A stretch of DNA of 64,000 nucleotides, from contig JAUCBJ010007175.1 in assembly GCA_032718475.1 (NCBI GenBank), positions 1 to 64,000 of the forward strand, in the 5' to 3' direction. Shown here piece after piece: positions 23,801 through 64,000 of this stretch (its first letter is position 1; every line of letters starts with the position of its first letter). A program made the translations under genes and the position numbers. The DNA comes from Nemertoderma westbladi. Taxonomy: Eukaryota; Animalia; Xenacoelomorpha. The notes beneath the pieces are model-generated. The model did no database searches, was not told the origin of the DNA, and saw only the letters and a program-made list of their open reading frames with translations.

Positions 23801-26800
23801 AGACATTTTGCTAGCGACCACAGATACTCCATGGATTCCATTGAGTATCTGTGGTCGCTAGATGGATAAGAACGCCATATAATGCTAAAACCAAATAACT
23901 GCAAAAATTTAATTCCACAGAAAACCGTTAACTTTTACAAACGTAATGTAATTTTATCACTGTAGACCTATAGCTATGTGTGTAGTGTATGTGCTAACTA
24001 ACCATCGTGTGAGCTTTATTTTGTATACATACATATATCATGTACACCACTATGAGGATGCATTACCGTCCGTTTCTATTGTGAACTGTGTAAAAATCGA
24101 TGGCTAATGGATTGTAGAAGCTGTTACGATCTATTCTCCTTCAAGTATCTCTGTAGTTGGGCGCCGGGATGATTTTAATTCGTGCTGGATACATACAAAG
24201 GGGATTATAACATAATTAGTACAGGAGTACATCAACTTAACTCACCAATTCAATTTGTCGCGTTTTATTAAACGAAAATTGGCAGCTATCAAGCTGACGC
24301 TTGTTTACTCCCTCAGCGGCAGAGCTTCCATCCCATGTTATCATGGTTAACTGTCAGATGCCCAATAGGGACACTTCCCAATGATAATTTTGCTTAATAA
24401 AATTAAGAACATTAATGGAAAGGAGCAGGTTACAGTGGCGGTCTTTTCTAACCAAAACAATAAACTACAAATTATTTCACTTGCGGTCAGGTCAATTTGC
24501 TCTGAGGATCACTATTTTCACTTGTGCTCAATGTGCGCCACTATCTGATTATGTGATGTATTAGGCCTAGCAACAGGCAAAATACGTAATGAATGGAAAT
24601 TGTGGTCTCAAAAAAATCTTATTGGGCAAGTGACTTATTCTGTAAGTCGAGTATTGGGTCAGTGACCTATAGGTAAAGTGACCTACTTTCGTTTAAAACT
24701 GAAATATATTGGGCAAGTGACCTATAATATTATTTTTATGGGCAAGTGGCGTATTGGGGAAGTGTCCTATTGGGCAAGTATCTGCATCCCGTTAACGGTC
24801 TCAGGAATTCTTAGCCCGCAGGTATTCTGTAACGTGCGAGTAAAATGTTTCCCATAATGTGAAACATGGTGGGAACTATCTAAATCTAAACTCTAATAAA
24901 TCCCGCGGGCTAAGACAGACATCACCCAACCCCGTTAACATGTACTGTAACTGTACAATGTTAAGTATGTTGATGCAACAAAATAGGAAGGGCCTTAGTA
25001 GTCAACGGGAGCAGCAGGGTACGCAGCAAACTTCGCCTGCGAGAAAGCTTTGCCCGCATCCATTCTTCGCTCGGAGCAATCTTCGCCCTCAAAATAATCA
25101 ACTATCTCCCGGCGGAAACCTTCGCCCGCAGGCAATCTTCGCCCGCAGGCAATCTTCGCCCGCAGGCAATCTTCGCCCGCAGGCAATCTTCGCCCGCAGG
25201 CAATCTTTGCCCGCGAGCAATCTTCGCCCACTATACAATTATTGTTTTGGTTAGAAATAGCCGTCTCTGTAACCTGTTCCTTTCCCTCAATTGGTAACTA
25301 AAATGGTTACTAACACAAATCTTATTGGGCGAAGGTTGCTCGCGGGCGAAGATTGCCGGGCGAAGTTTGGACGCGGACGATGGTTGTACCCAAACATCAG
25401 CAGCCATAACATTTTTTGTCTGATACAACATTTTTTACGAAAAAAACAGTGCTTTTTTTTGAAAATTTTAAAATTATTTTGAAAAATAGCGGTCAAAGAA
25501 GTTGTCGGCATCCGAATGCTTGAAATACCTTCAATGGTATACGGATGAACCTGCGTACGATATTGTACGCCAGCACCTAGGTATGGCGGAAGATGGTTTT
25601 CAATCTTAATATTTTTAATGCAATTAAATTAATTTTTCAAATCCACTAAAATTCCGGGATTAATTGCTCATCTTATGTTAATATTGGTTTTATATTGCTA
25701 TTGTCACGGAAACGGCGTAATTTCAACGTACAAATTATCTTTAATTGTTTACGATTATTCGTAGTAACACGATTAATCGTCGTTTTTCTAACGACCAATC
25801 CACATTCAATTTGATGACCACATCAAAATCTTTGCAATAATTCATCGTGATATCATCGCTACGAATTAACATTTATCGTTCGATCGCGATTAATCCTGAG
25901 TGTTTTATTCACACTCGCCAAGCTTTGGATTTGTACGAACAAATCACTTTTAGGTTGAAGAATAACTGCAATGTAACTGATGAAATATACACTGAGACAC
26001 TTTTAGTAAATGATTGAAAGAATTTGGGGGCGGGATTCGTGTCGATTCGTGGTTGCTTTTATTGAATGTGGTTTTGTTTACTTTTGTTACCCACAGATGC
26101 CGACCGAACATGATGGGAAGACGATGCGATGAAGTGCGACCAGGTAACTATATCCCCGATGTAGATAACTACCTGGTCGAGGCTGAAGATGATCCAACTA
26201 TATCGGGCGAACAGGTCAGATATAAGTTTATCACATTCTCTCTTATTGTTACTGCGTGATATAATGTACTATATATCACACCGATTGGTAAATATACGTA
26301 GTTGCCAAACTGAAAAATTATTTGGATTTTATCTTGCTAATAATTACGTTTCGCATTATTAGGCACTAATAATTATTTATTACATGAGGAAAAAAGTAGA
26401 ACTTTTTCTTTATTCTCGAGGCATTTTATTTACCGAGAATCAGCGAGGTTAATAAAGGGTCGAGAGAATATTGTGTTCTCGAATATTTATTACGTAACTA
26501 GAGAGCCGCTTAACTATTCATAAACAAATATTGGGTATTGAGTTCCGTTTTGGTGTTCGCCTTGCAGACACTAAAGTTGCAATAACTTTTGAGTGTGTGA
26601 ATGGATTTGGCTCAAATTACGTGCAAACCTTTTCTACTTCGATGCTCCTCCAACACTAAAAATATTATATATTTCTTCTTTCGCCGGGAAAAAAAACAAA
26701 ATCAATGCTATCCTATGGGTTACTTTTTTCCCTATCTAAAAAGGTTCTCCTTTGTCTCCCGATTTTGGGTAGCTATAGTTTCTGCTAATTTTGAATTTAT

Positions 26801-29800
26801 ATGATATTGAACATGTTCTATATCACATAAAAAGTAGTTTCAGAATGGTTTTCTGGAACATTTTTATGAATACATGAAGACATGTTTGTTTATCTAACTT
26901 GTTGAAGGCCTAGAACATAAAGTAAAAAATAGCCAAAACTTCAATTGATTTTTGTATCTTTTTAAAAACAAACGTTCCAGAATATAAAATATCTTATGAT
27001 TATTTTTAAAAATATATGTCACAAAAAATATATGAAATCTAAACAATATAGATTTAAATATAAGACTTTATTTATGCGAATGTTCTAACTCTGCCTCTCC
27101 CCATACAGAAGGTGGTTGTCCCCTCGCCGTCCAGCGATGACGTCACCGTGTTGGTGGACCTGTTGCCGGGCGAACCGCTGACGTTCGTTATATCGGACCT
27201 ACCGGACGAGCGTTGGTATAAAGTGCTGATCCGGTTCGTTAACCCCAGAGGTCCGGACGAAGCCTCGTTCGCGCTGACCAACCCGGACGGGACAGCTGTC
27301 GATACACAGTGCGGGGGTCGGGAGCAGAGCTCGTTACCTAGGTTACAGGTACGTTATAGAGGCATTAAAGAATTCGTTGCCTAGGTTACAGACGTACGTC
27401 ATAGAGCCGTTACAGACCTCGTTACCTAGGTTACAGACGTACGTCATAGAAGCGTTACATGCCTCGTTACCTAGGTTACCGACGTACGTTAAAGAGGCGT
27501 TACAACCTCGTTACCTAGGTTACAGACGTACGTCATAGAGGCATTACAGACCTCGTTACCTAGGTTACAGACGTACGTCATAGAGGCATTACAGACATCG
27601 TTACCTACCCAGTGAAAAATGCGCATGCGTATCGCAAGTGATTTTAAAGCGTCATGCGTTTTTATTGCGGCTCAATAAATAGCGATAAAACTCTTGTGAT
27701 TCGCATGTGATTCACATGTAAATAGGGAAGCGATTCCACGCATGCGCTTCACAACTTATTTTACGCATGTGATTCCGTGCATGAAAATCGCATGGGAATC
27801 ACACCTCATTTAACGCTTATTTTACGCATGTTTTACACCATGAGATTCTCATGAGTTAATTCCCATGCGAATCGCATGTTTTTAATTACACTAAAGAATA
27901 TTAATTAAAATAAAGTTGCCTATCAAGAAATAAATAGTTTTAAAATATAAAATGGATGAATACGAATTATCTAATATGGCTGTCAAATACAGATATTATA
28001 TTAATATATTTTATAGAATTGAAAATTATAGGGAATAGTTAAAAGTGTATCATGGTTGTTCTAATCTATTTGTATTATCCTGTATATAACCAACCATTTC
28101 TAGTATTGATTCATACAGCATGTCTAATGTTCTAAGTCTAGAGAGTGAAATGTAATGTAATGTAAGGTAAGTACAGTAGGCAGATGATACGGAAGCCCAT
28201 AGTATCAAACAGTAGTGGAATAATCAACTACTGTAGCATATTTTCTGCCACAAAAGGTCTCAATGTATTACACAAAAATCACAACCAGTAGATTTTTGCG
28301 ATATTTATGCGTCATGACGCTTGAAAGTCGCAAGTGAATCGCATGTGAGTTTTATGCGACTGAACGCAAGTTGTTGTGATTTTTATGCGACTTAAACGCA
28401 ATTTGTTGCGATATTTATGTGACATAACTCAAGTAGATCGCTTGCGTAAAGGTCGGGCCATAACTCTTGGGAATCACATGAGATACGCCTGCGTTGCACG
28501 CTTGCGATACGCTTGCGCACTTTTCACTGGGTAGGTTACAGACGTACGTTAAAGAGGCGTTACAGACCTCGTTACCTAGGTTACAGACGTACGTCATAGA
28601 GGCATTACAGACCTCGTCACCTAGGTTACAGACGTACGTTAAAGAGGCGTTACAGACCTCGTTACCTGGGTTACAGACGTACGTTAAAGAGGCGTTACAG
28701 ACCTCGTTACCTAGGTTACAGACGTACGTCATAGAGGCATTACAGACCTCGTCACCTAGGTTACAGACGTACGTTAAAGAGGCGTTACAGACCTCGTTAC
28801 CTAGGTTACAGACGTACGTCATAGAGGCTTTACAGACCTCGTTACCTAGGTTACAGGTATGTTATAGAGGCGTTACAGACCTGGTTACCTAGGTTACAGG
28901 CACATTATAGAGGCTTTACAGACCTCGTTACCTAGGTTACAGACGTACGTCATAGAGGCATTACAGACCTCGTTACCTAGGTTACAAACGTACGTTAAAG
29001 AGGCGTTACACCCTCGTTACCTAGGTTACAGACGTACGTCATAGAGGCATTACAGACCTCGTTACCTAGGTTACAGACGTACGTCATAGAGGCATTACAG
29101 ACATCGTTACCTAGGTTACAGACGTACGTTAAAGAGGCGTTACAGACCTCGTTACCTAGGTTACAGACGTACGTCATAGAGGCATTACAGACCTCGTCAC
29201 CTAGGTTACAGACGTATGTTAAAGAGGCGTTACAGACCTCGTTACCTAGGTTACAGACGTACGTCATAGAGGCATTACAGACCTCGTCACCTAGGTTACA
29301 GACGTACGTTAAAGAGGCGTTACAGACCTCGTTACCTAGGTTACAGACGTACGTCATAGAGGCTTTACAGACCTCGTTACCTAGGTTACAGGCACATTAT
29401 AGAGGCTTTACAGACCTCGTTACCTAGGTTACAGACGTACGTCATAGAGGCATTACAGACCTCGTTACCTAGGTTACAAACGTACGTTAAAGAGGCGTTA
29501 CAGACCTCGTTACCTAGGTTACAGGTACATTATAGAGGCGTTACAGACCTCGTTACCTAGGTTACAGACGTACGTCATAGAGGCATTACAGACTTCGTTA
29601 CCTAGGTTACAGACGTACGTTATAGAGGCGTTACAGACCTCGTTACCTAGGTTACAGGTACATTATAGAGGCATTACAGACCCCGTTACCTAGGTTACAG
29701 GCATGTTATAGAGGCGTTACAGACCTCGTTACCTAGGTTACAGGTACGTTATAGAGGCGTTACAGACCTCGTTACCTAGGTTACATGTTAGTTTGTGGGG

Positions 29801-32800
29801 GGGGGAGGGGGGGGGGGGGCTCGCTCCAAACGGCTAAAGATACAAACAGTGGTGAAATATTTCTTATTTATAACATTATAATATGTATCATAATAATTAT
29901 TATATGTTATTTATTGTTGATTTGGTTATTATCTCTGGTATATTATTTACAGACAATTGAGTTCCTGGAATCTCGTGGTGCGACTGCAGTGGAAGTGGCG
30001 ACGCTGTGTCTAAAGCCTAGTCGGCGTTACGTTGCCACGGTGACCGTAACACGTAGCACTAGCGGTTACCCTAGCGACGGGGTTGGCATAGACTCGGTTG
30101 TCGCCCTACCTGTCCCCGACGACCTAACCTTCACTACTGACGATGGAATGGATCTCGTTGACGAGTTCAATGAACTTAACTGTCTGCAGTGAGTCTGTCT
30201 ATCAGTAAATTAATTTACAAATAAAATCTTTTTTTTAACCTCATAAGTCTCATTTATTTACATAGATAATAAAAACTTTACAAAATTCAGATAATATTAA
30301 ACAACGTTACTAGGCAACAAATGTAAGAGCGAAATTTAAAATGAAAAGTGCACCCACCCCCCAACACAGAAACAGTCTCTATGATGTATGGAGCATACTA
30401 CTGTACTACCCCACCCACCCAGCCGAACTGCGCCAACACCCCCGGGTCTGAATCCGCGTTAGCCAACCGGATCGATGAGTCGGTGACTACCTCCCGCACC
30501 GGTCGCCTATCATCTGAACGGTAACCGCGCAAACACATTAAGGACGACTTGAGGAGGGAGAAACTGATCTGACAACTTTACCGCCAGTCGTTTTACAAAC
30601 TGGTGGGCAGCTGGTGCCATTCCTCCGAAAGCAGAGAGGATTAAGGGAGTGAAGGTGGAGTGTTCCACCTCGCGTAATCTCTCCTCGTATTTCCGGCACT
30701 TCCTCGCCTCGTAGTGGAGATGAGCGGCGTCAATCGACATCGCCGCGTTGGTGTCCGCCAGCGGGTTGAACGCCGACACGTCGCTGAATATTTTCGGGTA
30801 GCGATTGACCAAGAATCCGCTTACCGACATGTCGAGCCGCGCCAGCTGGTCTGTCGAGGTGGAACACATATAAATCTAATAAATAATAATGAAATGTCAA
30901 ATTATCTTATTGGAATTATTAATACATTATTAAGCCATAAATTAATTAATAATTAATTTATTAAAAATAATTATTATTGAGAACAAAATAATGTGGAATG
31001 GATATAGGACGTTTCGTCCCCGGTGCGAAAAGTCCAGGGAAGAAAAGTGCGGGGACGAAATGTCCACCATCACGGACTTTTCGTCCAGAAAGTAAATAAT
31101 TACTAGCTACCATGACTCATAAATTATTCCAGACAAATATTTTAATTGAAGATTCAATTTCTTTTTTATTAATTTTTTTACTAGCTATTATAAAGTACTA
31201 GCTAACACAAAATCAAAATAACTAACTACCATCTTAATGTGAGAAGGTAGCTAAAGGGGTGAAAAGTCCGGGACGAAAATACCGGGTTAAAAGTTCCGGG
31301 ACGGAAAGTCCGCGGGACGACAAGTACGGGACGGAAAGTCCGGGAGGGAAAGTCCGGGGACGAAAAGTCCGGGGACGAAAAGTCCGGGGACGAAAAGTCC
31401 GGGGACGAAAAGTCCGGGGACGAAAAGTCCGGGGACGAAAAGTCCGGGGACGAACAGTATATTGACGAAATGTCCGTATACCATGTGGAATAACTTGTTT
31501 TTTCTGTAGGTCTGTGTGTGTCCTCTTTTTAATCCGGATTTATTCGCAATAGCAGAATATGCATTTATTCCTCGGCTACGCCTCGAAAAAATGTGCACAT
31601 TCTACTATTCCTCGAAAATTCGGATAAAAAAGTCAGACAAAAAAATAGTACTTTCTTTTTGTAAAATAAATAAATTATATTATGTTTTTTAATTTATTGA
31701 AATAGAAATATACCGTTTTCTACTATACTTTTATTATTACTTCTACAAGGTTTTGGTACAAAAACTCTGATATTGTAATTCCCGAGGAGTGTCGGGACCC
31801 GGCCAAATCCATCAGCTTACAAATACACGAGGCCGCGTTACCCTGCGAGTGCGACCCCATTGGTTCAATATCTACTGGTTGCGATACACAGAATGGTCAG
31901 TGCCGGTGTAAACGCAATGTGATTGGTCGGCGTTGCACGGCCTGTGTTAGTTACCACTACGGGTTCGGGGCAGAAGGGTGTCTTCCGTGCGACTGCAATA
32001 GAGATGGGACAGACACGGATGTCTGTACTGAAGATACAGGCCAGTGTCGGTGTAAAGATAGTAAGTTTGTACAGTAGTTTAGTAGTAGACCTTGTGTGTG
32101 TAAAGATAGTAAGTTTGTACAGTAGTTTAGTAGTAGACCTGTGTAGAGTGTGTAAAGGTGGGCAAGTGTACCGTATAGTAAAATGCTACGTGTACAGCTC
32201 GTAAAGTTAATTTAAAGTAAAGATTTTTATCTCAGTTAAAACGGCAGTGTGCAGATATTAAGAGTGGAATAAAATTTATTAATAATTATTTTTAACGTCT
32301 CGTAGATATCGTTGGTCGTACATGCGACACTTGCGGCCGGATGCGGCATCGCTTCCCCACGTGCGTGGCCTGCGACTGCGGGAGATACGGCCGACTCGTG
32401 CGACCCGGTCTCCGGTAGTTGCATCGGTTGCTCCGAGAACACCGCCGGGAAACAGTGCGGCGACTGCGCCACGGGTTACTACCGGGGGGTTGCTGCTATG
32501 GGAACCGAGACCCGTTGTCTGGCATGCACGTGTCCCGGCCGACCCGGGTCTGGGAGGTATTTCGCCGATTCCTGTCAGATGGTCTCTTTCGCCGGACAAA
32601 ACAAGGTAACGAATCTGTTGCATTCCTATCGTATTAGTGTTTTTGTAATGCATTTATTATTCGATAGTCTTCAATATTAATATAGATACTATTTTAGATT
32701 AAATGGAGTTGGCATTTGTTATGGCTGTATTGTTAATTAATTGGAACTTTGATAAAAAAACTTTTATGAAAATGTTTGGCTGATAAAAACAACAGCACTC

Positions 32801-35800
32801 CAGAGTTTGTACTTTTCGCACCAAGTTTTTACCTCACATTTTGGCGTGCAGCATTAACATTAACATTTTTCTCTTTTGTTATTTAATTTAATTCCTTTTA
32901 CGGATTTAATCATTGGACGTTGGGGTGTCACTTGTGGTTTATAAAAAGTGGGGCGAGCCAAAGTATTAGTTTTTGCTTTTTATATTTCTAAAGTGTCCCA
33001 GATGTCGAATTTTCTTATATTTTAGTGGTTTATATTTTTGTGATTTCATTTTTCATTTTTAGTAGAAAATCAACTGCATTCAGTTCCAGATCTATAAATT
33101 AGTTGGAGTGGAATATTTCGTTTAAATTATATTCAATTAAATATTGTTTCGGGGCTCTCAATATTTGAGCACCAAAAATGGCTTCTCGTTCGAGGCCCCA
33201 CCCCCCCCCCCCCCCCCCCCCCCCTTCGAGAACGAGGGGGGAGGGGCGGGATACTCCATTCTGTATATGATTAATGAATTTAATTATCTAATTAATTTTA
33301 ATTTATTAATTTATACAGGAGTTGCGATGCTCATGTAGTCCCGGTTACCAAGGAAACGAATGCGACCAATGCGTTCCCGGTTACTATGGCAATCCCCCCG
33401 CTTGGTATCAGCTGTTCCAAATGTTTCTGCAACGATAATACCGGGGAATTCCGGATGCGACGCCTCTAGCGGCGCGTGTAGGAACTGCAGAGGGAATACG
33501 GAGGGGAGAGAATGTGAGCGTTGTGTACCGGGGTTCTGGGGGGAAGCGACACAGGGCGATTGTAAGCCGTGCGGATGCAGTTAACTAGGATCGTACAGTA
33601 AACCGTGCGGATGCAGTAAACTAGGATCGTAAGTAAACCGTGCGGATGCAGTAAACTAGGATCGTAAGTAAACCGTGCGGATGCAGTAAACTAGGATCGT
33701 AAGTAAACCGTGCGGATGCAGTAAACTAGGATCGTAAGTAAACCGTGCGGATGCAGTAAACTAGGATCGTAAGTAAACCGTGCGGATGCAGTAAACTAGG
33801 ATCGTAAGTAAACCGTGCGGATGCAGTAAACTAGGATCGTAAGTAAACCGTGCGGATGCAGTAAACTAGGATCGTAAGTAAACCGTGCGGATGCAGTAAA
33901 CTAGGATCGTAAGTAAACCGTGCGGATGCAGTAAACTAGGATCGTAAGTAAACCGTGCGGATGCAGTAAACTAGGATCGTAAGTAAACCGTGCGGATGCA
34001 GTAAACTAGGATCGTAAGTAAACCGTGCGGATGCAGTAAACTAGGATCGTAAGTAAACCGTGCGGATGCAGTAAACTAGGATCGTAAGTAAACCGTGCGG
34101 ATGCAGTAAACTAGGATCGTAAGTAAACCGTGCGGATGCAGTAAACTAGGATCGTAAGTAAACCGTGCGGATGCAGTAAACTAGGATCGTAAGTAAACCG
34201 GTGTCGTTGGTGAATGAACGGGGTTCGAACCAGCGCTATACGTACGTTTGGCCTATCAGGCCTCATCAGTAGCGTTAACCAGTTCAGTCACTTGCCCCTG
34301 ACACTTACTCTCCCATCTAATACACTTCTTTTGGACATTTAGTTTAAAGATGCATACTAATGCCGCTACTAATGAGGCCTACCAGGCCGAAAAATGCGTA
34401 TAGCGCTGGTTCAACCCCCGGTGACATGTTTTCTCATGTTTGACCATTTCTGAATAAAAATATATTAAGACTATAATTCATTAAATAGTTTTGCATTATC
34501 AGCTGGTTGATCTCCAATTCATGCAATCGTAAGTAAACTGTGTAGTTAAGTTGTGTTCATGTAATAAAATGTTCCACCTTGGTGTTGTGGTTGCATTGAA
34601 TTAACATCTCTCGTAGGTCGTGGGTTCGATCCCCAAATGAGCCAGGGTAGTTTTCGTTTCGGCACGATGGTAGCTAAATGAGTACTGGGGATTCCTGTTT
34701 GGGAATTAGAAGTCCCAAAAATGTTTATTTTGAAGTGTATTTGTTTTAACATTAATTATTACAATTACAATAAATGATTTAACTCTAGTTACTTATTTCG
34801 CCTTGTGCGTTATGAAAAATGAGCAAGCCAGGGCCTTGGAAGAAATTAAACAGCAACTAGTTTTAAACCAGGACATGTTAAGTGCCTCTAATAGGCAATT
34901 ACCACCCAAGGCCACGAAACCAGGCTTCCAAATAATCCAGAGAGCTTCTGACATGGCAGGTATTCATGCAGAAGATTATAGGTGGAACCAGATTAACGAT
35001 AGTGACATTTTCAGTCGGACTGACTCCAGGCCTCAACAACCTCCCATACAAGTGAACCAACCTTACACGGATGACCCACCCAAATTTACCTTTCATACAC
35101 CACAAATAACTCCTGACTATTCCAAACTAAATATGTCAGCACAAGAGAGTTTTACACACCAGATGGCACGTACAGAAGCGCGTCAAGCAGTGTCCACTGG
35201 AGAAACTCTTAAGTTCTATGGCGATGAACTAAAATGGCTGCCATTTAATGAATAATTATAAAGACACTATTCAAAATTCAGTGCTTTCTGATGGTGAGAA
35301 GTTAAGGTTTTTGATCGACTGTTTGGAAGGAGCTCCCAGAGATATGGCTATGAAATATATTGGTCACCCTGGAGGATTACAGCAATGTTTGAGTAATTTA
35401 TGTGAACGTTATGGTAACAAAACTAAAATAGCTAGATATATCTATCAAAAGTTAGTTGCCCGAAAGCGTATCACAGCCGCTGGATTGATTGAATTCGCTG
35501 ACGAAATTCAAGAGATGTGCCGGCAATTAGACTGGTTAAGTAGAACTGATGTTTATGATACAACCATGCTCGTAAATATGATAGCAAAACAACCTACCCA
35601 AGGGCAATGTAGGAAACAGGTGGGATAAACATGTCCTCCATCTGGAACGTAGCCAAAATAGAGAACCAAAAATGCAAGACTTTACAAAATTCCTGAAGGA
35701 AGAAGTAAAACTGCAATTGCAAAGGGAACGCAATGAACCAAAGGTCAGTGAAAGGTTTGTGACCAGAAAGCGAGGAACTGTGTACCACGTGACAGTGAAA

Positions 35801-38800
35801 GCTATACATCGCCAGGTGAGGATACGGGTAGGGATAGTGCGAGTGAAGTATATTATACTAAACCGACTGGTAAACTGAGAACTGGGCCAAGTACACCACC
35901 TAGATCCAGACAAGTTAGTTGCAAATCTAGTGCCCCTAGTAGAGACAAGCATTCCGGACCCGACACTTACCCCTTGAAGGTGCCAAATGTACAATCCAAT
36001 ACAGCTGTCTGTCTACACGAAATTGCTCTTTATGTAAGGAGACGCACCGACTATCACGTTGCCCAGAATTTTTCAAGAAAACTCTTAAGGAAAGAAGGGC
36101 TACTGTAAGCTCACTTGGACTCTGTTTCGTTTGTTTACAATCCAGACATTTGAGAAACAAATGTCGGTTCGAAACAAAATGTCCCAAATGTAGTGAAAGA
36201 CATCATGCTCTGTCTGTTACATATAGATCAGCCTAAGGTAAGGGACCCGGAATATCATGTTCAATTTAGCGACTGCTATGACTCGAACACCTCATCTGAT
36301 GCGGCGGAATTTTTCCCCGGATAATTTTCTGATGAAGATGAAATGTGTAATATGTGTCATTCAGCCATATACAAGGCACTACAATATGAAACTCCATCAG
36401 ACACTAATGATGATGAACTAAACGACCCAGCTCATGCGCAGGTGAGTAAGCGCATTCACCGACCCAAATATGTTATCCGTGAATTTCCTGTGGTCCAACT
36501 TCGTTTGCACACACCCCACTCCAGTGTCATTATAAATGCGCTCATGGACACAAGAGGTACCGGAAGCCAACATCTTGTTTAGAGACAAAGACAAATTCCC
36601 CATGAAACTGTAACTATCAGGAATTGTGCAAGTATGGAAGTCGACAGTTAGTACTAACTATTGCAAGGGAGCTCTATCGACACCATGGTAAGGACTGCTT
36701 GAGAAACATCAAAACTTGAAACACTCGAGAAACGGCCACCACATCCTCCGCCTATGACGACTTATGCCGGCAGGACAAGGATCGGCTGGTTTTGTACTGG
36801 ACCATCAGCTAAGACTTTGGCTGAACGAGAGAGCCGATCTAAAAGCCTTCAATGTAACATGACCAACAGGAGATATGTCATTTCTGTCTCATTTCTCGTT
36901 CAGGAAATGTGGAGTGAGAACAACTCCTGGGATCTGGAGAAACATGATCTGGGGAGTATAATTCTGGGGGGGGGGGGGGGGGGGGGGGGCACTGGAAATA
37001 TGTATTCAGTCTTTGTGCATAATTCCTGGCGAAACGGCTGAAGAAAATTTACTTTACTAATATTTAACCACATTTACAGACAATGCGACGGCGACGGTAA
37101 CTGTGGTGTTTGCGATATCCGTTCCGGCGTTTGTGATTGTTTACCTAATGTCGAAGGCAAACTGTGTAAAAGGTTAGTCTCTGTAAAGATAAATCAACAC
37201 AAACCGTTATACGGTTATGGCTAAATGTTTATAGCCATCCTGCGTTAGTTTATTTACACTAAACATTTATTGTACTCAATCTCAACCCAAGATTCAGATA
37301 CCCAATCCTACCTCCCCTCCCTCCATTACTTTTATTTATATTCAGTTCTCATATAGCCCTACCTTGACAGTAACACACTGAATAGCAATATCTTATATTT
37401 TAAACCAACCCCACCACCCACCACTATAGTGCTGTTTAACTTATTTTGTAGTGACAAATTAACTAAACCCAATAAAATAAATATAAATGACACTAATTTT
37501 TTCAACTAATTAAATAATAGTTGGAATTCAACTAAAAGTTAACTAAATACCAACATTTTGAATAATTCACGTAAACATACCGACAGTTCTTATTGACTCG
37601 TAAAGGACAACACCACCCATTCTATATTGGGTATGGTCTTTCATATGGTTATCACTATGTTAGCCTACTCTACCTTGTAACTTAGCTCAACTGGATCGAG
37701 GGATCCGGGAGAAAAAATACAGTTCATTTAGTTTTAAATCACTTCGCTTGTAACTTAACTGTGTAATAAATAAATTATTAATTAACTTTAAGTAGATTCT
37801 TTCAACGCATATAATATATATTTTATTATTTTTGAACATATATAAAGTAATTTCAGACAATGTTTACTACAATATTTTATCTACTACTTGCTCTATTATC
37901 CGTACCGGTATCTCAATGTAACTCATTATTTGCTTCGTATAGATGCCAACCTGGGTACTGGGGTCTGGGATCCCAGGCTGACTCACCAGGCTGTCAGCCT
38001 TGTGATTGCAGTCCCCAGGGATCACTGACACCGGACTGTAACCAATTAGAAGGTCACTGTGACTGCAGACCCGGTTTCGGTGGTCGAACATGTACAGAAT
38101 GTGCTAATGGACAGTGGGGTAAGTTAATGTTGTAATGGACAATGGGGTAAGTTAGTGTGGTAATGGACAATGGGGTAAGTTAATGTTGTAATGGACAATG
38201 GGGTAAGTTAATGGACAATAGGGTAAGTTAATGGACAATGGGGTAAGTTAATGGACAATGGGGTAAGTTAATGTTGTAATGGACAATGGGGTAAGTTAAT
38301 GGACAATGGGGTAAGTTAATGTTGTAATGGACAATGGGGTAAGTTAATGGACAATAGGGTAAGTTAATGGACAATGGGGTAAGTTAATGTTGTAATGGAC
38401 AATGGGGTAAGTTAATGGACAATGGGGTAAGTTAATGTTGTAATGGACAATGGGGTAAGTTAATGGACAATAGGGTAAGTTAATGGACAATGGGGTAAGT
38501 TAATGTTGTAATGGACAATGGGGTAAGTTAATGGACAATGGGGTAAGTTAATGGACAATGGGGTAAGTTAATGGACAATGGGGTAAGTTAATGGACAATG
38601 GGGTAAGTTAATGTTGTAATGGACAATGGGGTAAGTTAATGGACAATAGGGTAAGTTAATGGACAATGGGGTAAGTTAATGTTGTAATGGACAATGGGGT
38701 AAGTTAATGGACAATGGGGTAAGTTAATGGACAATGGGGTAAGTTAATGGACAATGGGGTAAGTTAATGGACAATGGGGTAAGTTAATGGACAATAGGGT

Positions 38801-41800
38801 AAGTTAATGGACAATGGGGTAAGTTAATGTTGTAATGGACAATGGGGTAAGTTAATGGACAATAGGGTAAGTTAATGGACAATGGGGTAAGTTAATGTTG
38901 TAATGGACAATGGGGTAAGTTAATGTTGTAATGCACAATGGGGTAAGTTAATGTTGCAATGCACAATGGGTTAAGTTAATGGACAATAGGGTAAGTTAAT
39001 GGACAATGGGGTAAGTTAATGTTGTAATGGACAATGGGGTAAGTTAATGTTGTAATGCACAATGGGGTAAGTTAATGTGGTAATGCACAATGGGGAAAGT
39101 TAGTGTGGTAATGGACCATAGGGTAAGTTAATGTGGTAATGGGGTAAGTTAATGGACAATGGGGTAAGTTAATGGACAATGGGGTAAGTAAATGGACAAT
39201 GGGGTAAGTTAATGGACAATGGGGTAAGTTAATGGACAATGGGGTAAGTTAATGTAGTAATTGGGTATGCTAATGGTCAATGGGGTAAGTTAATGTGGTA
39301 ATTGGGTAAGCTAATGGACAATGGGGTAAGTTAATGTTGTAATGCACAATGGGGTAAGTTAATGTGGTAATGGGTTAAGTTTATGTTGTAATGCACAATG
39401 GGGTAAGTTAATGTTGTAATGCACAATGTTGTAAATTTATGTTGTAATGGACAATGGGGTAAGTTAATGTGGTAATGAGGTAAGTTAATGTTGTAATGGA
39501 CAATAATGGTGTAAGTTAATATGGTAATGGATAATGGGGTAAGTTAGTGTGGTAATGGACAATGGGGTAAGTTAATGTGGTAATGGACAATGGGTTAAGT
39601 TACTGTGGTAATGGGTTAAGTTTATGTGGTAATGGACAATGAGATAAGTTAATGTGGTAATGAGGTAAGTTAATGTTGTAATGGACAATAATGGTGTAAG
39701 TTAATATGGTAATGGATAATGGGGTAAGTTAGTGTGGTAATGGACAATGGGGTAAGTTAGTGTGGTAATGGACAATGGTGTAAGTTACTGTGGTAATGGA
39801 CAATGAGGTAAGTTAATGTGGTAATGAGGTAAGTTAATGTTGTAATGGACAATAATGGTGTAAGTTAATATGGTAATGGATAATGGGGTAAGTTAGTGTG
39901 GTAATGGGTTAAGTTTATGTTGTAATGCACAATGGGGTAAGTTAATGTTGTAATGCACAATGTTGTAAATTTATGTTGTAATGGACAATGGGGTAAGTTA
40001 ATGTGGTAATGAGGTAAGTTAATGTTGTAATGGACAATAATGGTGTAAGTTAATATGGTAATGGATAATGGGGTAAGTTAGTGTGGTAATGGACAATGGG
40101 GTAAGTTAATGTGGTAATGGACAATGGGTTAAGTTAATGTTGTAATGCACAATGGGGTAAGTTAATGTTGCAATGCACAATGGGTTAAGTTAATGGACAA
40201 TAGGGTAAGTTAATGGACAATGGGGTAAGTTAATGTTGTAATGGACAATGGGGTAAGTTAATGTTGTAATGCACAATGGGGTAAGTTAATGTGGTAATGC
40301 ACAATGGGGAAAGTTAGTGTGGTAATGGACCATAGGGTAAGTTAATGTGGTAATGGGGTAAGTTAATGGACAATGGGGTAAGTTAATGGACAATGGGGTA
40401 AGTAAATGGACAATGGGGTAAGTTAATGGACAATGGGGTAAGTTAATGGACAATGGGGTAAGTTAATGTAGTAATTGGGTATGCTAATGGTCAATGGGGT
40501 AAGTTAATGTGGTAATTGGGTAAGCTAATGGACAATGGGGTAAGTTAATGTTGTAATGCACAATGGGGTAAGTTAATGTGGTAATGGGTTAAGTTTATGT
40601 TGTAATGCACAATGGGGTAAGTTAATGTTGTAATGCACAATGTTGTAAATTTATGTTGTAATGGACAATGGGGTAAGTTAATGTGGTAATGAGGTAAGTT
40701 AATGTTGTAATGGACAATAATGGTGTAAGTTAATATGGTAATGGATAATGGGGTAAGTTAGTGTGGTAATGGACAATGGGGTAAGTTAATGTGGTAATGG
40801 ACAATGGGTTAAGTTACTGTGGTAATGGGTTAAGTTTATGTGGTAATGGACAATGAGATAAGTTAATGTGGTAATGAGGTAAGTTAATGTTGTAATGGAC
40901 AATAATGGTGTAAGTTAATATGGTAATGGATAATGGGGTAAGTTAGTGTGGTAATGGACAATGGGGTAAGTTAGTGTGGTAATGGACAATGGTGTAAGTT
41001 ACTGTGGTAATGGACAATGAGGTAAGTTAATGTGGTAATGAGGTAAGTTAATGTTGTAATGGACAATAATGGTGTAAGTTAATATGGTAATGGATAATGG
41101 GGTAAGTTAGTGTGGTAATGGACAATGGGGTAAGTTAATGTGGTAATGAGGTAAGTTAATGTTGTAATGGACAATAATGGTGTAAGTTAATATGGTAATG
41201 GATAATGGGGTAAGTTAGTGTGGTAATGGACAATGGGGTAAGTTAATGTGGTAATGGACAATGTGGTAAGTTACTGTGGTAATGGACAATGAGGTAAGTT
41301 AATGTGGTAATGAGGTAAGTTAATGTTGTAATGGACAATAATGGTGTAAGTTAATATGGTAATGGATAATGGGGTAAGTTAGTGTGGTAATGGACAATGG
41401 GGTAAGTTAATGTGGTAATGAGGTAAGTTAATGTTGTAATGAACAATAATGGTGTAAGTTAATATGGTAATGGATAATGGGGTAAGTTAGTGTGGTAATG
41501 GACAATGGTGTAAGTTAATATGGTAATGGATAATGGGGTAAGTTAGTGTGGTAATGGACAATGAGGTAAGTTAATGTGGTAATGAGGTAAGTTAATGTGG
41601 TAATGAGGTAAGTTAATGTTGTAATGGACAATAATGGTGTAAGTTAATATGGTAATGGATAATGGGGTAAGTTAGTGTGGTAATGGACAATGGGGTAAGT
41701 TAATGTGGTAATGGACAATGGGTTAAGTTACTGTGGTAATGGACAATGGGGTAAGTTAGTGTGGTAATGATGTAAGTTAATGTTGTATTGGACAATGCGT

Positions 41801-44800
41801 TAAGTTACTGTGGTAATGGACAATGGTGTAAGTTAATATGGTAATGGATAATGGGGTAAGTTAGTGTGGTAATGGACAATGAGGTAAGTTAATGTGGTAA
41901 TGAGGTAAGTTAATGTGGTAATGAGGTAAGTTAATGTTGTAATGGACAATAATGGTGTAAGTTAATATGGTAATGGATAATGGGGTAAGTTAGTGTGGTA
42001 ATGGACAATGGTGTAAGTTAATATGGTAATGGATAATGGGGTAAGTTAGTGTGGTAATGGACAATGGGGTAAGTTAATGTGGTAATGGACAATGGGGTAA
42101 GTTAGTGTGGTAATGGACACTGGGTTAAGTTACTGTGGTAATGGACAATGGGGTAAGTTAGTGTGGTAATGATGTAAGTTAATGTTGTATTGGACAATGC
42201 GTTAAGTTACTGTGGTAATGGACAATGGGGTAAGTTAATGTGGTAATGGACAATGGGGTAAGTTAATGTGGTAATGATGTAAGTTAATGTTGTAATGGAC
42301 AATAATGATGTAAGTTAATATGGTAATGGATAATGGGGTAAGTTAGTGTGGTAATGGACAATGGGATAAGTTAATGTGGTAATGGACAATGGGGTAAGTT
42401 ACTGTGGTAATGGACAATGAGGTAAGTTAATGTGGTAATGGACAATGGGGTAAGTTAATGTGGTAATGATGTAAGTTAATGTTGTAATGGACAATGGGTT
42501 AAGTTACTGTGGTAATGGACAATGAGGTAAGTTAATGTGGTAATGGACAATGGGGTAAGTTACTGTGGTAATGGACAATGGGGTAAGTTAGTGTGGTAAT
42601 GATGTAAGTTAATGTTGTAATGGACAATGGGTTAAGATACTGTGGTAATGGACAATGGGGTAAGTTAATGTGGTAATGATGTAAGTTAATGTTGTAATGG
42701 ACAATGGGTTAAGTTAATATGGTAATGGATAATGGGGTAAGTTAGTCTGGTAATGGACACTGGGTTAAGTTACTGTGGTAAGGGACAATGGGGTAAGTTA
42801 GTGTGGTAATGATGTAATTTAATGTTGTAATGGACAATGGGTTAAGTTACTGTGGTAATGGACAATGGGGTAAGTTAATGTGGTAATGGACAATGGGGTA
42901 AGTTAATGTGGTAATGATGTAAGTTAATGTTGTAATGGACAATGGGTTAAGTTAATATGGTAATGGATAATGGGGTAAGTTAGTGTGGTAATGGACAATG
43001 GGGTAAGTTAGTGTGGTAATGGACAATGGAGTAAGTTAGTGTGGTAATGGACACTGGGTTAAGTTACTGTGGTAATGGACAATGGGGTAAGTTAGAGTGG
43101 TAATGGACACTGGGTTAAGTTACTGTGGTAATGGATAATGGGGTAAGTTAGTGTGGTAATGGACAATGGGGTAAGTTAGTGAGGTGATGGACAATGGGGT
43201 AAGTTAGTGTGGTAATGGACACTGGGTTAAGTTACTTTGGTAATGGATAATGGGGTAAGTTAGTGTGGTAATGGACAATGAGGTAAGTTAGTGAGGTGAT
43301 GGACAATGGGGTAAGTTAGTGTGGTAATGGACAATGGGGTAAGTTAGTGAGGTAATGGACACTGGGTTAAGTTACTTTGGTAATGGATAATGGGGTAAGT
43401 TAGTGTGGTAATGGACAATGAGGTAAGTTAGTGAGGTGATGGACACTGGGTTAAGTTACTGTGGTAATGGACAATGGGGTATCTCCGTGTGGTAAAGGAC
43501 AATGGGGTATCTCCGTGTGGTGATGGACAATGGGGTATGTTATTGTGGTAATAGATATATACATGTTGGGTGTGCTGTTAATTCTGTTAATTCTTTTTGT
43601 TTTAATAACTTTGTTTTTAAATATTAGGTGATCCATCAGTTGGGTGTAAACCTTGTGGATGCGACCCATCTGGGTCTCAGAAACAGCAATGCGACCGAAG
43701 TACTGGTGTCTGTCAATGTAAACCCGGCATACAGGGCCGCTACTGCGAGCAGTGTGAGAGAGGGAGTGTGGAATTCCCGATCTGCCGTAACTGCGGACAA
43801 TGTTTCACTAACTGGGACGATAAGTAAGTTTATAGCAATGGATTCTTGTTCGTTATAATAATTATAAACTAGATAAACAAAAAAAAAATCATAAAGGAAA
43901 TTTGTAATCCTTCCAGACAATCTTGTCTAAATGTGTATTTCTATTGATAATAATGAGTGATTTAAGTTTGTAGTTTACTAACCAAATACAGTATATTTAA
44001 TCTACCTATATATTTAATAAGTAATGGTACTTTCATAGGTAATAAAGGTACACTTATATTTACTTATAATTATCAATTAATATTTTTACTCTAAATTTAA
44101 AGTTTCGGGGTGCGGGTTTCGGGTGGATGCGAGGTGTGTGGGATCTAGGGACCACCTCATAAAGTTCCTTGCTGTTCGCGAGTGAGGGATCCACCCACAG
44201 TTCCCATGATGGAGGCCGCATCCGACCAGAATGGCAACAGCTTACAAGAATTGAGTCTGAACCTCCTTGTTGAGTTCCTGGTACTTTCGGATCTTTATAG
44301 TTCCGCTTCCTCGGCAGTGCGCCCTCAAGCGGATACAATTATTTATTTAATTCATATAATTCAAATGTCGAAAGTTGAAAATTATAACGTAATTACATCA
44401 ACAAATTATTTATAATTTTATTCGCAGGATAGAAGACCTGGTTAACGCCACTCGGGCAACTATAGAACGCTCCAAAAACTTTACGGGTTCCAGCCATGCT
44501 GGAGCCTATGACCGAGAACTAGCGGAGTTGGAGGCATTGGTTGATAATATTACCAGTCATATTAGCGATCCTTTCTACAGCACCGACGATGTTATGAAGA
44601 TCGCCAATGAACTGGAAGATCTGAAAACTCGATATGGCAAAAAATTGGTTAGAAGGAGTTTTCTTTTTTCTTTATTGAAGAAAATAATAATGTTTTATAT
44701 ATTTAATTGATTGGTATTTATATGGTATTAATAATTATGATACAACTAAATAGTGAAACCAACTTATTATTGTTACCTATTACAGGATGACCTAGAGGTG

Positions 44801-47800
44801 AATGCTTACAGTATAGAATCCTTGGACGAGGACATGGCTGATAGTACAGATGCGTTGGACATACTGAGAGACAGAATCGAGGATTTAGGGATCCTAAGTG
44901 ACTTGATGCTGGCTAATGCCACTGAGTTGTCAGCCTCTGACGCAGAAGGAGCCATTAGAGTGTTAGAAGAAGCTATGGATGTCGTCCAACAAGCTGTAAG
45001 AAAGGTTAGTCTGGTACAATTTTCATGTTGGTTGATTGTAAACTGAAACAATTTGAATGTTGATAATTTCCAAAGTGCCGCCCATGTGAGGAATACCAGG
45101 ATTTCACTTTTCGGTCGACTTTTTATTGGAATTTTATATAGGAAGATTTTTTATTTTTTTTTAATTTATCTTTATTAAGTGTTTTATAGCGCTTTATTTC
45201 TGTCTTATAACCTGTACATATACTAATTCGTTTATTGTTTTGGTTAGATTCAGCCCTTCTGTAACATGTGTTTTTGGTGAAAACCTATGGTTTTCTTCAC
45301 ATGGGGGTAACTGCAAAGTGAAATATAACGGCAGAAAGTCTGGTATTCTTCACATGGGGGTAACTGCAAAGTGAAATATAACGGCAGAAAGTCTGGTATT
45401 CTTCACATGGGCCCCAAAGTGAAACAATTTTAATGTTGATTGATTCTAAACTGAAACCATTTTCCTGTAGGTTGATTCATTGGACGAGATAGTGGAGAAT
45501 GCGACGAGAATTCGAACCGACGTGGAAGACATTTTGTTGAAGTCTGAGCGACTGCGTCTGGAGCCGCGATTCAACGAGACTGTAGACCGAGTAGCGGAGG
45601 GTCTGGCGGACGTGGAGGACCTACTGCGTGGTCTCAACCGGGACGTCTGTGGCTCCGGCTCGCCCTACTGCAACCCAGCGTGCGGCGGGGCTGGTTGTCC
45701 CGTACAGTGTGGCGGAGAAGACTTCCTGAACAAGTCCCGTTGCGCAGGTATCACTTACCGAATTGTAAAAATCTCACCCCAAAGGAAAACTCCCAAAAAT
45801 CAGTTTCAACTCTCTAAGATTAATCGAATAACATAGCCAAACGTTTGCTCAATTAGTTTGTTAAGGTTCGATACATAAGTATCGGTAATTTTTTTAATGT
45901 GAGTGTTGTTAAACACGTAAAATCAGTAGTACTTACTTAATTATAATATAATAATGAAATTCCGGTATTATAATACACCATCTCACTTAAAACAACAATT
46001 TTTAGCAAGTCGGAGAACCCCCACCCCCCCCCCCCCCCGAATTGTTTTTAAATTTCAATCATATTTTACGAAATTTGATTTGATGATAGTTCGACACCTT
46101 TTCTTACTGTTGGCCTTGCCGGATTTTAATTTATGAGCTATTTCGATACAACAAGACGTTACAAATCGTCTTTTTCGCAATATTTAGCCACTATGTCTTC
46201 TTTATTTTTCGTCTTTGGAATGAAATCTATATTAGAACCGCTTTCATCTGCAGATTCAGAATCAGAAAACCGTTTTAAATTTCACCAATAACTTCCGGAG
46301 ATATTATCAAAATTCAAAAGTATACATTTTGACACATAATTCGCTATAATTCTAATGTTTTATTTACTCAATTCTAGAATATTAATTACGTGTAATGAAG
46401 AAATAACATGGCAAAGAAACAACAGAGCACCTAATTAATGCATCATCAAATACTATGTGTAAATATATTGCTTTCCTTTTCAACAGCATGACCCATTGTG
46501 GAGTCTTTCCGGACAACCTATGTGAGAGTCTCTTACTACCTCACCTCAAGAATGCTACTCGAAAGAAAAACGATACAACAAATTACAGAGGAATTTCAAT
46601 CTCATCAATCTTCGTCAAGCTGTGGGAAATTCTAGTTCTGAGCGAATTCACTCGAGAGGCAACTTGCCATCTCCAAATGGCATACAAGAAAGGAATCAAT
46701 GGAGAAATCCCCTACATGGTAGCCAATAAACTAATTAAGCGTTTTAATGCAGGTGGCTCAGACGTCCACGTGCTCTCAATAGACTTATCTGCGGCCTTCG
46801 ACTGCGTAAACCACAAATCTCTCTTTAGTAAGCTTAGGGAAACAAATATCGATAAACCCTGGTTACAACTACTCGAATCACTCTACAAAAAATCTACAGC
46901 TTATGTAAGAACAGGACGACGTTTATACACACAATCAATCAAACTATCCAAAGGCGTAAGAGAAGGGGGAGTATTATCTGCCTGGCTCTTTAATTTTTAT
47001 CTAAAAGAATTATTCGTCAACATAGAATCATTAGGATTAGGTATACACATCAACAAGCACTCCTACCCTATAATTGGGTATGCAGATGACATACTGCTTC
47101 TAGCAAACCTAAAGAGCGATCTACAGAAGTTAACAACAGTTTGTACTACCTACTTCTCTGCACATGGCCTAAAAGCGAACCCAACAAAATCCCATTATGT
47201 TATCTGCTCACCAACAACAAAGACAACCACTAAACAAACCCTGAAAGTTGGTCACACTACCCTAGAACACGAAAATAGTTGTCGATACCTAGGACTGCCC
47301 TTCCCCTTAAACTCAAGACAGCCTAAAAGACAACTTCGTCAAAAGGTGCTGGTGGAATGTGGCGCGACTAAAGAACCGGGGGTTATCAACTTCTGATGTG
47401 CCCCTGATAGTTACGAAGACCATATGGAAAACCATTTGCACCCCATCAATCCTATATGGAACAGCAAATTACACAGATGCTATCACCAACGATTTTGAAG
47501 TCTTTTTTCGAAAGGCTATGAGATCAATATTAGATGTCAAAAATTACGTATCCAACAATACCCTGTACCTTCTCCTAGGACAAGAAACCCTATCATCCCT
47601 AGTGGCATACAACAAATGTAGGATCATATACAGTGCTTTCAACTCTCGCAATCCAAAAATAATATACTTCTTCGCCTGGCTTCTAGCGCAGCATAGCCTT
47701 AATATATATAAAGACCCTCTATTTGACGACTACAACGTTGCGTCGTGGATTTACGAACTACCATGCATAACCAGCCTAGTAACGGCATCCTACAGCACCA

Positions 47801-61922: not shown

Positions 61923-62339
61923 AACTTATATTTATCTTAGTTTATGTTTCGCTAACATTCAGTAGGTTAATGTAAGTGTGGTTTACAATGTTGCTGTCAC
62001 ATGCAAATGTTCAAGTTTCAAGGTTAAATTCAGTTGTAACTTAAGCCTAATTTTTTTATCTCTACCCTATTATTAATTTTTAACACTGTAACTCAGCATT
62101 GAGTTACACCTAAGCGATTGGATCCATCGCAAGCCATAGTGATTATTCAAAAACCCCTCGACGTAATTCGACAACTAAACGGACAGTTTACTCCCTAAAA
62201 ATAGATTAATACTGCCAAAAATATGGCAGTATGTCTAACTTATTCATTAGGTTTGTGGCTTTTAAACCCCAATTTACGATAATATTTGATAAAAGGTAAT
62301 TATTATTATTGAAAATATAAGGGTTATATTTTTGAGTTT

Positions 62340-64000
62340 CATATACAGGAATATATTGATGTGTTTTATCGTATACAGGAATATATTTGTGTTTTATCAT
62401 ATACAGGAATATATTGATGTGTTTTATCGTATACAGGAATATATTGATGTGTTTTATCATATACAGGAATATATTTATGTGTTTTATCATATACAGGAAT
62501 ATATTTATGTGTTTTATCATATACAGGAATATATTTATGTGTTTTATCATATACAGGAATATATTGATGTGTTTTATCGTATACAGGAATATATTGATGT
62601 GTTTTATCATATACAGGAATATATTTATGTGTTTTATCATATACAGGAATATATTTATGTGTTTTATCATATACAGGAATATATTTATGTGTTTTATCAT
62701 ATACAGGAATATATTTATGTGTTTTATCATATACAGGAATATATTTATGTGTTTTATCATATACAGGAATATATTTATGTGTTTTATCATATACAGGAAT
62801 ATATTTATGTGTTTTATCATATACAGGAATATATTTATGTGTTTTATCGTATACAGGAATATATTTGTGTTTTATCATATACAGGAATATATTGATATGT
62901 TTTATCGTATACAGGAATATATTTATGTGTTTTATCATATACAGGAATATATTTATGTGTTTTATCATATACAGGAATATATTTATGTGTTTTATCATAT
63001 ACAGGAATATATTTATGTGTTTTATCATATACAGGAATATATTTATGTGTTTTATCATATACAGGAATATATTGATGTGTTTTATCGTATACAGGAATAT
63101 ATTGATATGTTTTATCGTATACAGGAATATATTTGTGTTTTATCATATACAGGAATATATTGATATGTTTTATCGTATACAGGAATATATTTATGTGTTT
63201 TATCATATACAGGAATATATTTATGTGTTTTATCATATACAGGAATATATTTATGTGTTTTATCATATACAGGAATATATTTATGTGTTTTATCATATAC
63301 AGGAATATATTTATGTGTTTTATCATATACAGGAATATATTTATGTGTTTTATCATATACAGGAATATATTTATGTGTTTTATCATATACAGGAATATAT
63401 TTATGTGTTTTATCATATACAGGAATATATTGATATGTTTTATCGTATACAGGAATATATTTATGTGTTTTATCATATACAGGAATATATTGATATGTTT
63501 TATCATATACAGGAATATATTTATGTGTTTTATCATATACAGGAATATATTGATGTGTTTTATCGTATACAGGAATATATTGATGTGTTTTATCATATAC
63601 AGGAATATATTTATGTGTTTTATCATATACAGGAATATATTTATGTGTTTTATCATATACAGGAATATATTTATGTGTTTTATCATATACAGGAATATAT
63701 TTATGTGTTTTATCATATACAGGAATATATTTATGTGTTTTATCATATACAGGAATATATTTATGTGTTTTATCATATACAGGAATATATTTATGTGTTT
63801 TATCATATACAGGAATATATTTATGTGTTTTATCATATACAGGAATATATTTATGTGTTTTATCATATACAGGAATATATTTATGTGTTTTATCATATAC
63901 AGGAATATATTTATGTGTTTTATCATATACAGGAATATATTTATGTGTTTTATCATATACAGGAATATATTTATGTGTTTTATCATATACAGGAATATAT
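62340..64000. repeat. 30-bp satellite running off the window end
   Basis: Unit GAATATATTTATGTGTTTTATCATATACAG with ATTGAT and ATCGT variants; about 55 copies. Confidence 0.97.

Follow-up and report, generated by a model that had tools for sequence, protein, structure and literature searches.

The closest described relatives of the system treated here, a set of tandem arrays at the splice junctions of a laminin beta-like gene of Nemertoderma westbladi, are the lancelet 'mirages', tandem repeats that run across exon-intron boundaries. Canestro 2002, known to us through citation, is said to be the original report on the lancelet Adh3 mirage, for which somatic length instability has reportedly been found. 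The available part of PMC3087553 describes mirages in Adh3 and in the globin genes BflGb6 and BflGb9, with units of 10-160 bp, and that of PMC3902484 adds PGBD5, which has two, and troponin C; by these accounts mirages sit at 5' or 3' boundaries and leave splicing undisturbed, and their origin is called unclear. In humans, donor-reiterating minisatellites are described in the available part of PMC1557585 for intron 7 of F7 (37 bp), intron 13 of CBS, 6-16, lamin B2 and PDGF, and selection of the most upstream donor was demonstrated for F7; internal tandem repeats at exon-intron boundaries have also been described in human duplicated genes (PMC2812944, available part). The available parts of PMC12783039 and PMC10078293 have no bearing on junction-spanning arrays. 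Here we analyzed a single stretch of 64,000 nt (contig JAUCBJ010007175.1; hereafter the window), to which all counts and P values refer. The arrays in its laminin beta-like gene belong to the known mirage class, but are unusually dense here. An earlier note on this DNA had known of no named system for them; as far as the available parts go, the class had already been named in PMC3087553 and PMC3902484, and human cases stand in PMC1557585.

2740..60956, + strand: 23 exons of a laminin beta-like gene, which goes on past either end of the model (from phases, Pfam and homologues).

A scan of the 23 donors and 23 acceptors of this gene revealed arrays at four donors (exons 8, 10, 12, and 14) and, more weakly, at one acceptor (exon 18). 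The four donor arrays lie where the earlier note had placed them: they start within the last 11-31 exon bases and extend into the next intron, with unit sizes (20-48 bp) in the minisatellite range. Four of the five sequencing runs that match part of a 1.8-kb stretch, all of them short-read contigs, are designated X1 to X4. The array donors and their arrays are as follows.

27109..27348, + strand: exon 8, donor CAG|GTACGT at 27348; its phase 0 agrees with exon 9.
27325..27607, + strand: 45-bp donor array, part 1, about 6 units; unit 1 includes the genuine donor and some 24 bases of the exon.
27608..28531, no strand assigned: inverted-repeat element inside the 45-bp array, 924 bp, with 39-nt arms that are 92% complementary and a TA target duplication.
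28532..29785, + strand: 45-bp donor array, part 2, 28 units (tandem-repeat and unit analysis).
31750..32060, + strand: exon 10; the donor of the first copy is used (joint 32060 to 32306, GT..AG, run X2).
32050..32157, + strand: 48-bp duplication of the exon 10 donor, 2 copies with 11 exonic nt, bounded by three copies of GTGTAAAG.
32306..33592, + strand: exons 11 and 12; the window letters are locally faulty, likely through consensus errors.
33562..34200, + strand: 35-bp donor array, 18 units (18.2), of 31 exon bases plus GTAA; the exon 12 donor is at 33592.
34526..34547, + strand: sequence that may be an older duplicate of the exon 12 donor with its flank (20 of 23 aligned columns identical), beyond an inverted-repeat element at 34219-34420.
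37943..38118, + strand: exon 14; the first-copy donor at 38118 is used, and the X2 contig continues into exon 15.
38098..43552, + strand: 20/28-bp donor array, about 205 units over 5.4 kb, with units of 20, 21, 28 and 31 nt and about 19-21 exonic nt.

The 45-bp array holds 34 anchored units in its two blocks; in 25 of them a 2-nt insertion replaces the AG ahead of the GT, and the GT itself is kept in most. The 48-bp units at exon 10 are edged by GTGTAAAG at 32050, 32098, and 32150. In the 35-bp array, ATC|GTAAGT is present in 17 of the 18 units, so that all 17 downstream units in intron 12 keep the splice signal, and GTAA.CCG is found at each end. The 20/28-bp array (209 copies by Tandem Repeats Finder [TRF], 203 anchored units) is G-rich on the sense strand, shifts its unit mix along its length and has decayed end units; GT is kept in 174 of the anchored units and missing in 29, and AATGTG.TAAT surrounds donor 14. 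The edge microhomologies that the earlier note had pointed out are thus present at these three arrays. Its range of 11-25 exonic bases per unit is exceeded at exon 12, and its ordering of the copy numbers 2, 18, about 35, and about 200 into stages of one process is interpretation, not observation.

In homologues, the exon ends from which the units of exons 10, 12, and 14 derive are conserved LE motifs, so the units came from the exons and not the reverse; the end of exon 8 falls in a poorly conserved stretch and could not be judged. The donor arrays also show no sign of an element-borne origin, as they start in exons and the elements lie within or after them. Six other arrays of the window sit within the inverted ends of mobile elements. 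Among 18 other donors tested for fossil arrays, none had an array that was both significant and spanning.

Splicing at the arrays was read from run X2. It is recorded as 'DNA?', but as its contigs lack introns, with joints at GT..AG borders, we take it to come from transcripts. In one contig exon 12 ends at 33592 and exon 13 follows directly, with the letter proper to the first unit. All three junctions seen (exons 10, 12, and 14) in the contigs of this one run use the first donor; contigs lose rare isoforms, and minor splicing is outside their reach. A candidate 26-nt microexon at 34503-34528 was rejected, as it is absent from the X2 contig in which exon 12 joins exon 13. Read-through to the second donor would bring a stop or a frameshift in all four arrays. 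Regular splicing is undisturbed by the arrays at exons 10, 12, and 14, and this use of the first donor agrees with F7, lamin B2, and PDGF (PMC1557585) and with the lancelet mirages, as given in the available parts of those reports. The arrays are likely neutral, given that splicing, where seen, takes the first donor.

The existence of the arrays is supported by contigs from another haplotype. X4 shows no differences from the window over 1,150 bases and may be the source of the window sequence; it is therefore not independent support. X1 and X3 come from one sample and represent another haplotype (8-9 differences in 692 bases), whose contigs contain the 48-bp duplication as well as the 35-bp and 20/28-bp units; the junction between the two 48-bp copies sits inside single contigs, X3 record 20 and X4 record 31. 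Summed depths in X1/X3/X4 were 2396/965/408 on the 35-bp units (flanks about 21-27/4-11/4) and 824/372/3341 on the 20/28-bp units (flanks 26/10/12). These values show that many units are present; they are no measure of copy number. Unit-to-flank depth is unlike between X1/X3 and X4. In the window, exons 11-12 (32389-33596) have single surplus bases at three places, a stop codon, and an unusual donor; no such faults are seen in the remaining 21 exons. X1 and X2 both lack the surplus base at 32389, X2 also lacks the two at 33394 and 33443, and X2 has a Lys codon in place of the stop; these lesions are likely consensus errors, and a pseudogene reading of the two exons is ruled out, as X2 is free of the lesions. 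A 35-bp unit variant found in X1 and X4 contigs is missing among the window's 17 identical copies; together with the likely consensus errors nearby, this makes the length and uniformity of the 35-bp array uncertain. The 45-bp array can be argued not to be an artefact, because its units have diverged and it holds an inserted element.

The window was picked for this pattern from about 250,000 scanned windows, and the P values below are uncorrected for that choice. Within the window, the excess of donor arrays is robust: against expectations of 0.2-1.1 donor arrays across the null models, the observed four amount to an excess of about 4-18 fold. A position null (0.026-0.035 per intronic site) gave a binomial P of 0.003-0.008, and a null based on intronic GT sites gave P 0.02-0.03. 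Under an array-birth null (24 births, period 10-120, 37.6 kb of array-free intron), 0.30 arrays are expected on donors (P 2e-4), or 0.22 when the six element-borne arrays are set aside (P 7e-5). With only 10 kb of intron taken as sufficiently old to be a target the P value was 0.006-0.019, and with 5 kb it was 0.05-0.12. The earlier note's claim that 4 of 23 donors is more than chance would give is thus borne out against window-local nulls (P 7e-5 to 0.02), in a window chosen for the pattern.

One acceptor bears an array too, and a further array is a candidate, as listed here.

45005..45478, + strand: decayed acceptor array in intron 17, about 4 units of 30-32 bp, the last of which spans the exon 18 acceptor (45471).
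45078-45413: inserted element that splits the intron 17 array, with an 8-bp target duplication.
62339..64000, + strand: array of 30-bp units, 56 of them within the window, each with an acceptor-like site; it leaves the window and may hold more copies, and is a candidate acceptor mirage of the next exon (exon 24), which lies outside the window.

The three upstream copies in intron 17 have TG where AG is expected, which fits the prediction of selection against upstream acceptors. If the inserted element is set aside, nearly all of intron 17 is made up of decayed units similar to the exon 18 acceptor, and the intron's donor context resembles the unit end; judged from these letters, the intron would fit an origin in which an AG|GT site was duplicated. 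In the array at 62339, a strong acceptor-like site stands in every anchored unit, and the bases behind it would continue the reading frame of exon 23; a matrix built from this gene's own acceptors scores 45 of the 56 copies at 10.4, a value reached by 0.04% of intronic AGs. The donor specificity seen in the earlier note is not supported, as 4 of 23 donors against 0-2 acceptors is not a significant difference (Fisher P 0.11-0.42).

We favor, with moderate confidence, the view that the four donor arrays are independent mirage minisatellites that were born by slippage between short direct repeats, expanded neutrally, and persisted at old, protected exon edges. Direct repeats of 8-11 nt bound three of the arrays, with one copy in the exon and the other in the intron. 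Replication slippage or microhomology repair would first duplicate 28-48 bp across a junction, a step that would be eased because intron starts and Cys-Lys codons alike often contain GTAA; unequal exchange and conversion would then enlarge the array and homogenize its copies. Copies internal to an exon would be purged, and junction-spanning copies would keep the exon intact. Finally, exon edges would be old and shielded from deletion while intron interiors turn over through mobile elements (long interspersed nuclear elements [LINEs] and inverted-repeat elements), and because of this difference in persistence a genome prone to repeats would accumulate arrays at its junctions. This last step is the weakest, as it reduces the excess without removing it. 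The edge repeats match the slippage anatomy of the Haber and Louis model, in which repeats of 5-10 bp flank the future unit and slippage or unequal crossing-over starts the array; as summarized in the available part of PMC6947457, that model is general and silent on splice junctions. Signs of drift are seen in the loss of AG in the 45-bp units, the loss of GT in intron 14, the decayed ends, and the element insertions.

Array-free donors have longer cross-junction microhomology than acceptors (5.4 vs 4.7 nt, P 0.007). This is compositional, since GTAA is common in intron starts (12 of 19) and exon ends (5 of 19) and matched exon-intron pairs do not exceed mismatched ones in similarity (P 0.21). 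Hairpins do not set the array donors apart either: their junction folding energies (-0.3 to -4.6) lie inside the range of the other donors, and the z-scores of two-unit stretches span -1.8 to +1.6.

Several observations weigh against the slippage-and-persistence view. Random intronic sites offer longer microhomology than donors (5.9 vs 5.4 nt), and the supply of seeds therefore fails to account for the excess relative to intron interiors. The 45-bp array is without a clear seed, and elsewhere a partial last unit is indistinguishable from a founding microhomology, which leaves the founding seeds as inferred. Donors carry four of the seven non-element arrays that score at least 100, the donor excess persists with the 10 kb intron target, and the four array donors fall within seven consecutive donors (P 0.04), a clustering that passive persistence does not predict. 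AG is kept in all 56 anchored copies of the candidate acceptor array at 62339; if this is an exon 24 mirage, acceptor copies can keep their AG, which would weaken any argument for their being purged. Lastly, the loss of rare isoforms from contigs leaves room for minor use of downstream donors.

Other accounts of the pattern were weighed against the same evidence. If germline polymerase pausing or R-loops at junctions raised the rate of slippage or break repair, splice junctions in this animal would be hotspots for tandem-duplication birth; we entertain this coupling to splicing tentatively, as the main rival, and none of the tests here supports it. It would accommodate the size of the window-local excess, the several mirages likewise found in one lancelet gene, PGBD5 (PMC3902484, available part), and the fact that the available part of PMC3087553 calls the mirage-generating mechanism unclear. 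The largest array is, moreover, strongly G-skewed, and the G skew over the first 50 intron bases averages 0.48 at array donors (n=4) against 0.22 at the others (n=19). This comparison, however, is tiny and was taken after duplication, the array-free donors 1-5 are equally skewed (0.50-0.67), donor specificity is not significant, and the window had been selected for its pattern. That selection is the strength of an account by chance, in which array births are spread evenly and a very large scan picked out one repeat-rich window that happened to have four hits: among so many windows, a P of 1e-3 to 1e-2 would be met time and again, and the gene span holds 25 arrays of period 10-120. We nevertheless consider it unlikely, as the earlier note had listed neither the fifth junction array, at the exon 18 acceptor, nor the candidate for a sixth, and mirages recur across lancelet genes (PMC3087553, PMC3902484, available parts).

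RNA-templated copying, in which nascent unspliced RNA is reverse-transcribed by a LINE enzyme and patched in as a tandem copy, would account for units that are collinear with the pre-mRNA, and LINE reverse transcriptase frames do lie in this gene's introns; the units, however, lack poly(A) tails, target duplications of their own, and joins between spliced exons, and DNA slippage gives the same anatomy more simply, which makes this route highly improbable. A selected function, as U1 decoys, telescripting aids, or donor-choice switches, could draw on the exact GTAAGT sites (172 in one intron and 17 in another) and on the one or two extra donors used in human 6-16 and CBS (PMC1557585, available part). 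It is very unlikely, given that 19 of the 23 donors are array-free, that copies lose their signal and accept mobile elements, that read-through to a second donor gives a stop or a frameshift in every array, and that first donors alone are seen at contig level; the donor-choice or decoy role raised in the earlier note thus finds no footing. An assembly or amplification artefact could appeal to the probable consensus errors in exons 11-12, which adjoin the 35-bp array, and to the X1/X4 unit variant not seen in the window. As an account of the arrays' existence it is already largely refuted and exceedingly improbable, because the 48-bp junction lies within X3 and X4 contigs, contigs with 35-bp and 20/28-bp units are plentiful in X1 and X3 from a different haplotype, and the 45-bp and 28-bp arrays have diverged units, the former also containing an element with a target duplication.

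The identity of the host gene is supported by several lines of evidence. Its domain order is the end of an LN domain, LE repeats, domain IV-B, LE repeats, and a coiled coil; Pfam recognized EGF_laminin in four of eight exon translations and, weakly, LAMININ_IV_B in one. Laminin beta-1 is the top match among solved structures (E 1.8e-24), and in a protein search 22 of 25 candidates were hits, at 34-52% identity, the majority labelled laminin beta (insects, fish, a hemichordate, and others). None of these 22 hits is a close relative, lancelet proteins are absent from them, and a metagenome scan (4 loci, 37-59% identity) yielded no useful orthologous introns. All introns are GT..AG, and phases match from exon to exon save inside exons 11 and 12. 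Exon GC is 51%, and 30% of the window is masked by TRF. An exon-like stretch at 23378-23505 in intron 6, an open Cys/His-rich frame with AG and GT at its edges, was rejected as an exon, being superfluous to the laminin frame, since exons 6 and 7 already join in phase.

The window holds other repeats and elements. A 20-bp array of 325 copies with higher-order blocks occupies 3150-9746 and 10374-10513 in intron 1 and touches no splice junction; its unit contains TACTAAT, which resembles what we take to be the branch-point consensus. LINE-type elements lie at 19492-22752 (intron 6) and 46407-47970 (intron 18), the former with an open frame of 1086 codons that encodes endonuclease and reverse transcriptase domains. 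Inverted-repeat elements with internal GC-rich arrays of 15-17 bp are found at 15034-16240, 25120-25357, and 31007-31458. The stretch at 34734-36900 in intron 12, AT-balanced with coding-like broken frames, is probably an old retroelement; the one frame tested gave no Pfam match. A (TCGG)75 microsatellite at 11964-12267 ends 50 bases ahead of exon 3, and a 465-bp two-copy repeat lies at 53832-54885 in intron 19.

In the literature searched (titles and abstract openings, few subscription journals, supplements outside the scope), we found no genome-wide test of junction enrichment and no mechanism for mirages. Several arrays per gene make such a test easy and well powered in this genome. If enrichment survives an age-matched null, splicing would shape the mutation spectrum of a gene's own DNA; if there is none, the locus is a clean case of neutral repeat growth tolerated by splicing. 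Were the junctions indeed hotspots, the 5-6 junction arrays in one 23-exon gene would be the visible mark of a process at work across the genome, one that lengthens introns at their ends and provides material for new introns, and no better system would yet exist for finding the mechanism behind mirages. For annotation, the arrays are a warning, as about 170 false donors lie downstream of one exon.

Set beside the known systems, as far as the available parts of the reports describe them, the present arrays share with human donor-reiterating minisatellites a first unit that crosses the exon-intron boundary, identical pseudo-donors after it, and use of the most upstream site (PMC1557585). They differ in number, as the human genes have one array each with 5-26 copies, and in use, as two pseudo-sites are also used in 6-16 and CBS and none is seen here at contig level (PMC1557585). 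The tandem repeats of human duplicated genes likewise straddle exon-intron boundaries, but create introns and alternative splicing in young paralogues, whereas no mRNA change was seen here (PMC2812944). With the lancelet mirages the arrays have in common boundary-spanning units that include splice signals, unaffected regular splicing, more than one array per gene, and diverged edge units. What sets the locus apart from them is scale: lancelet globin and PGBD5 mirages have 2-7 copies against up to about 205 here, and four donor arrays and one or two acceptor arrays are found among 23 exons.

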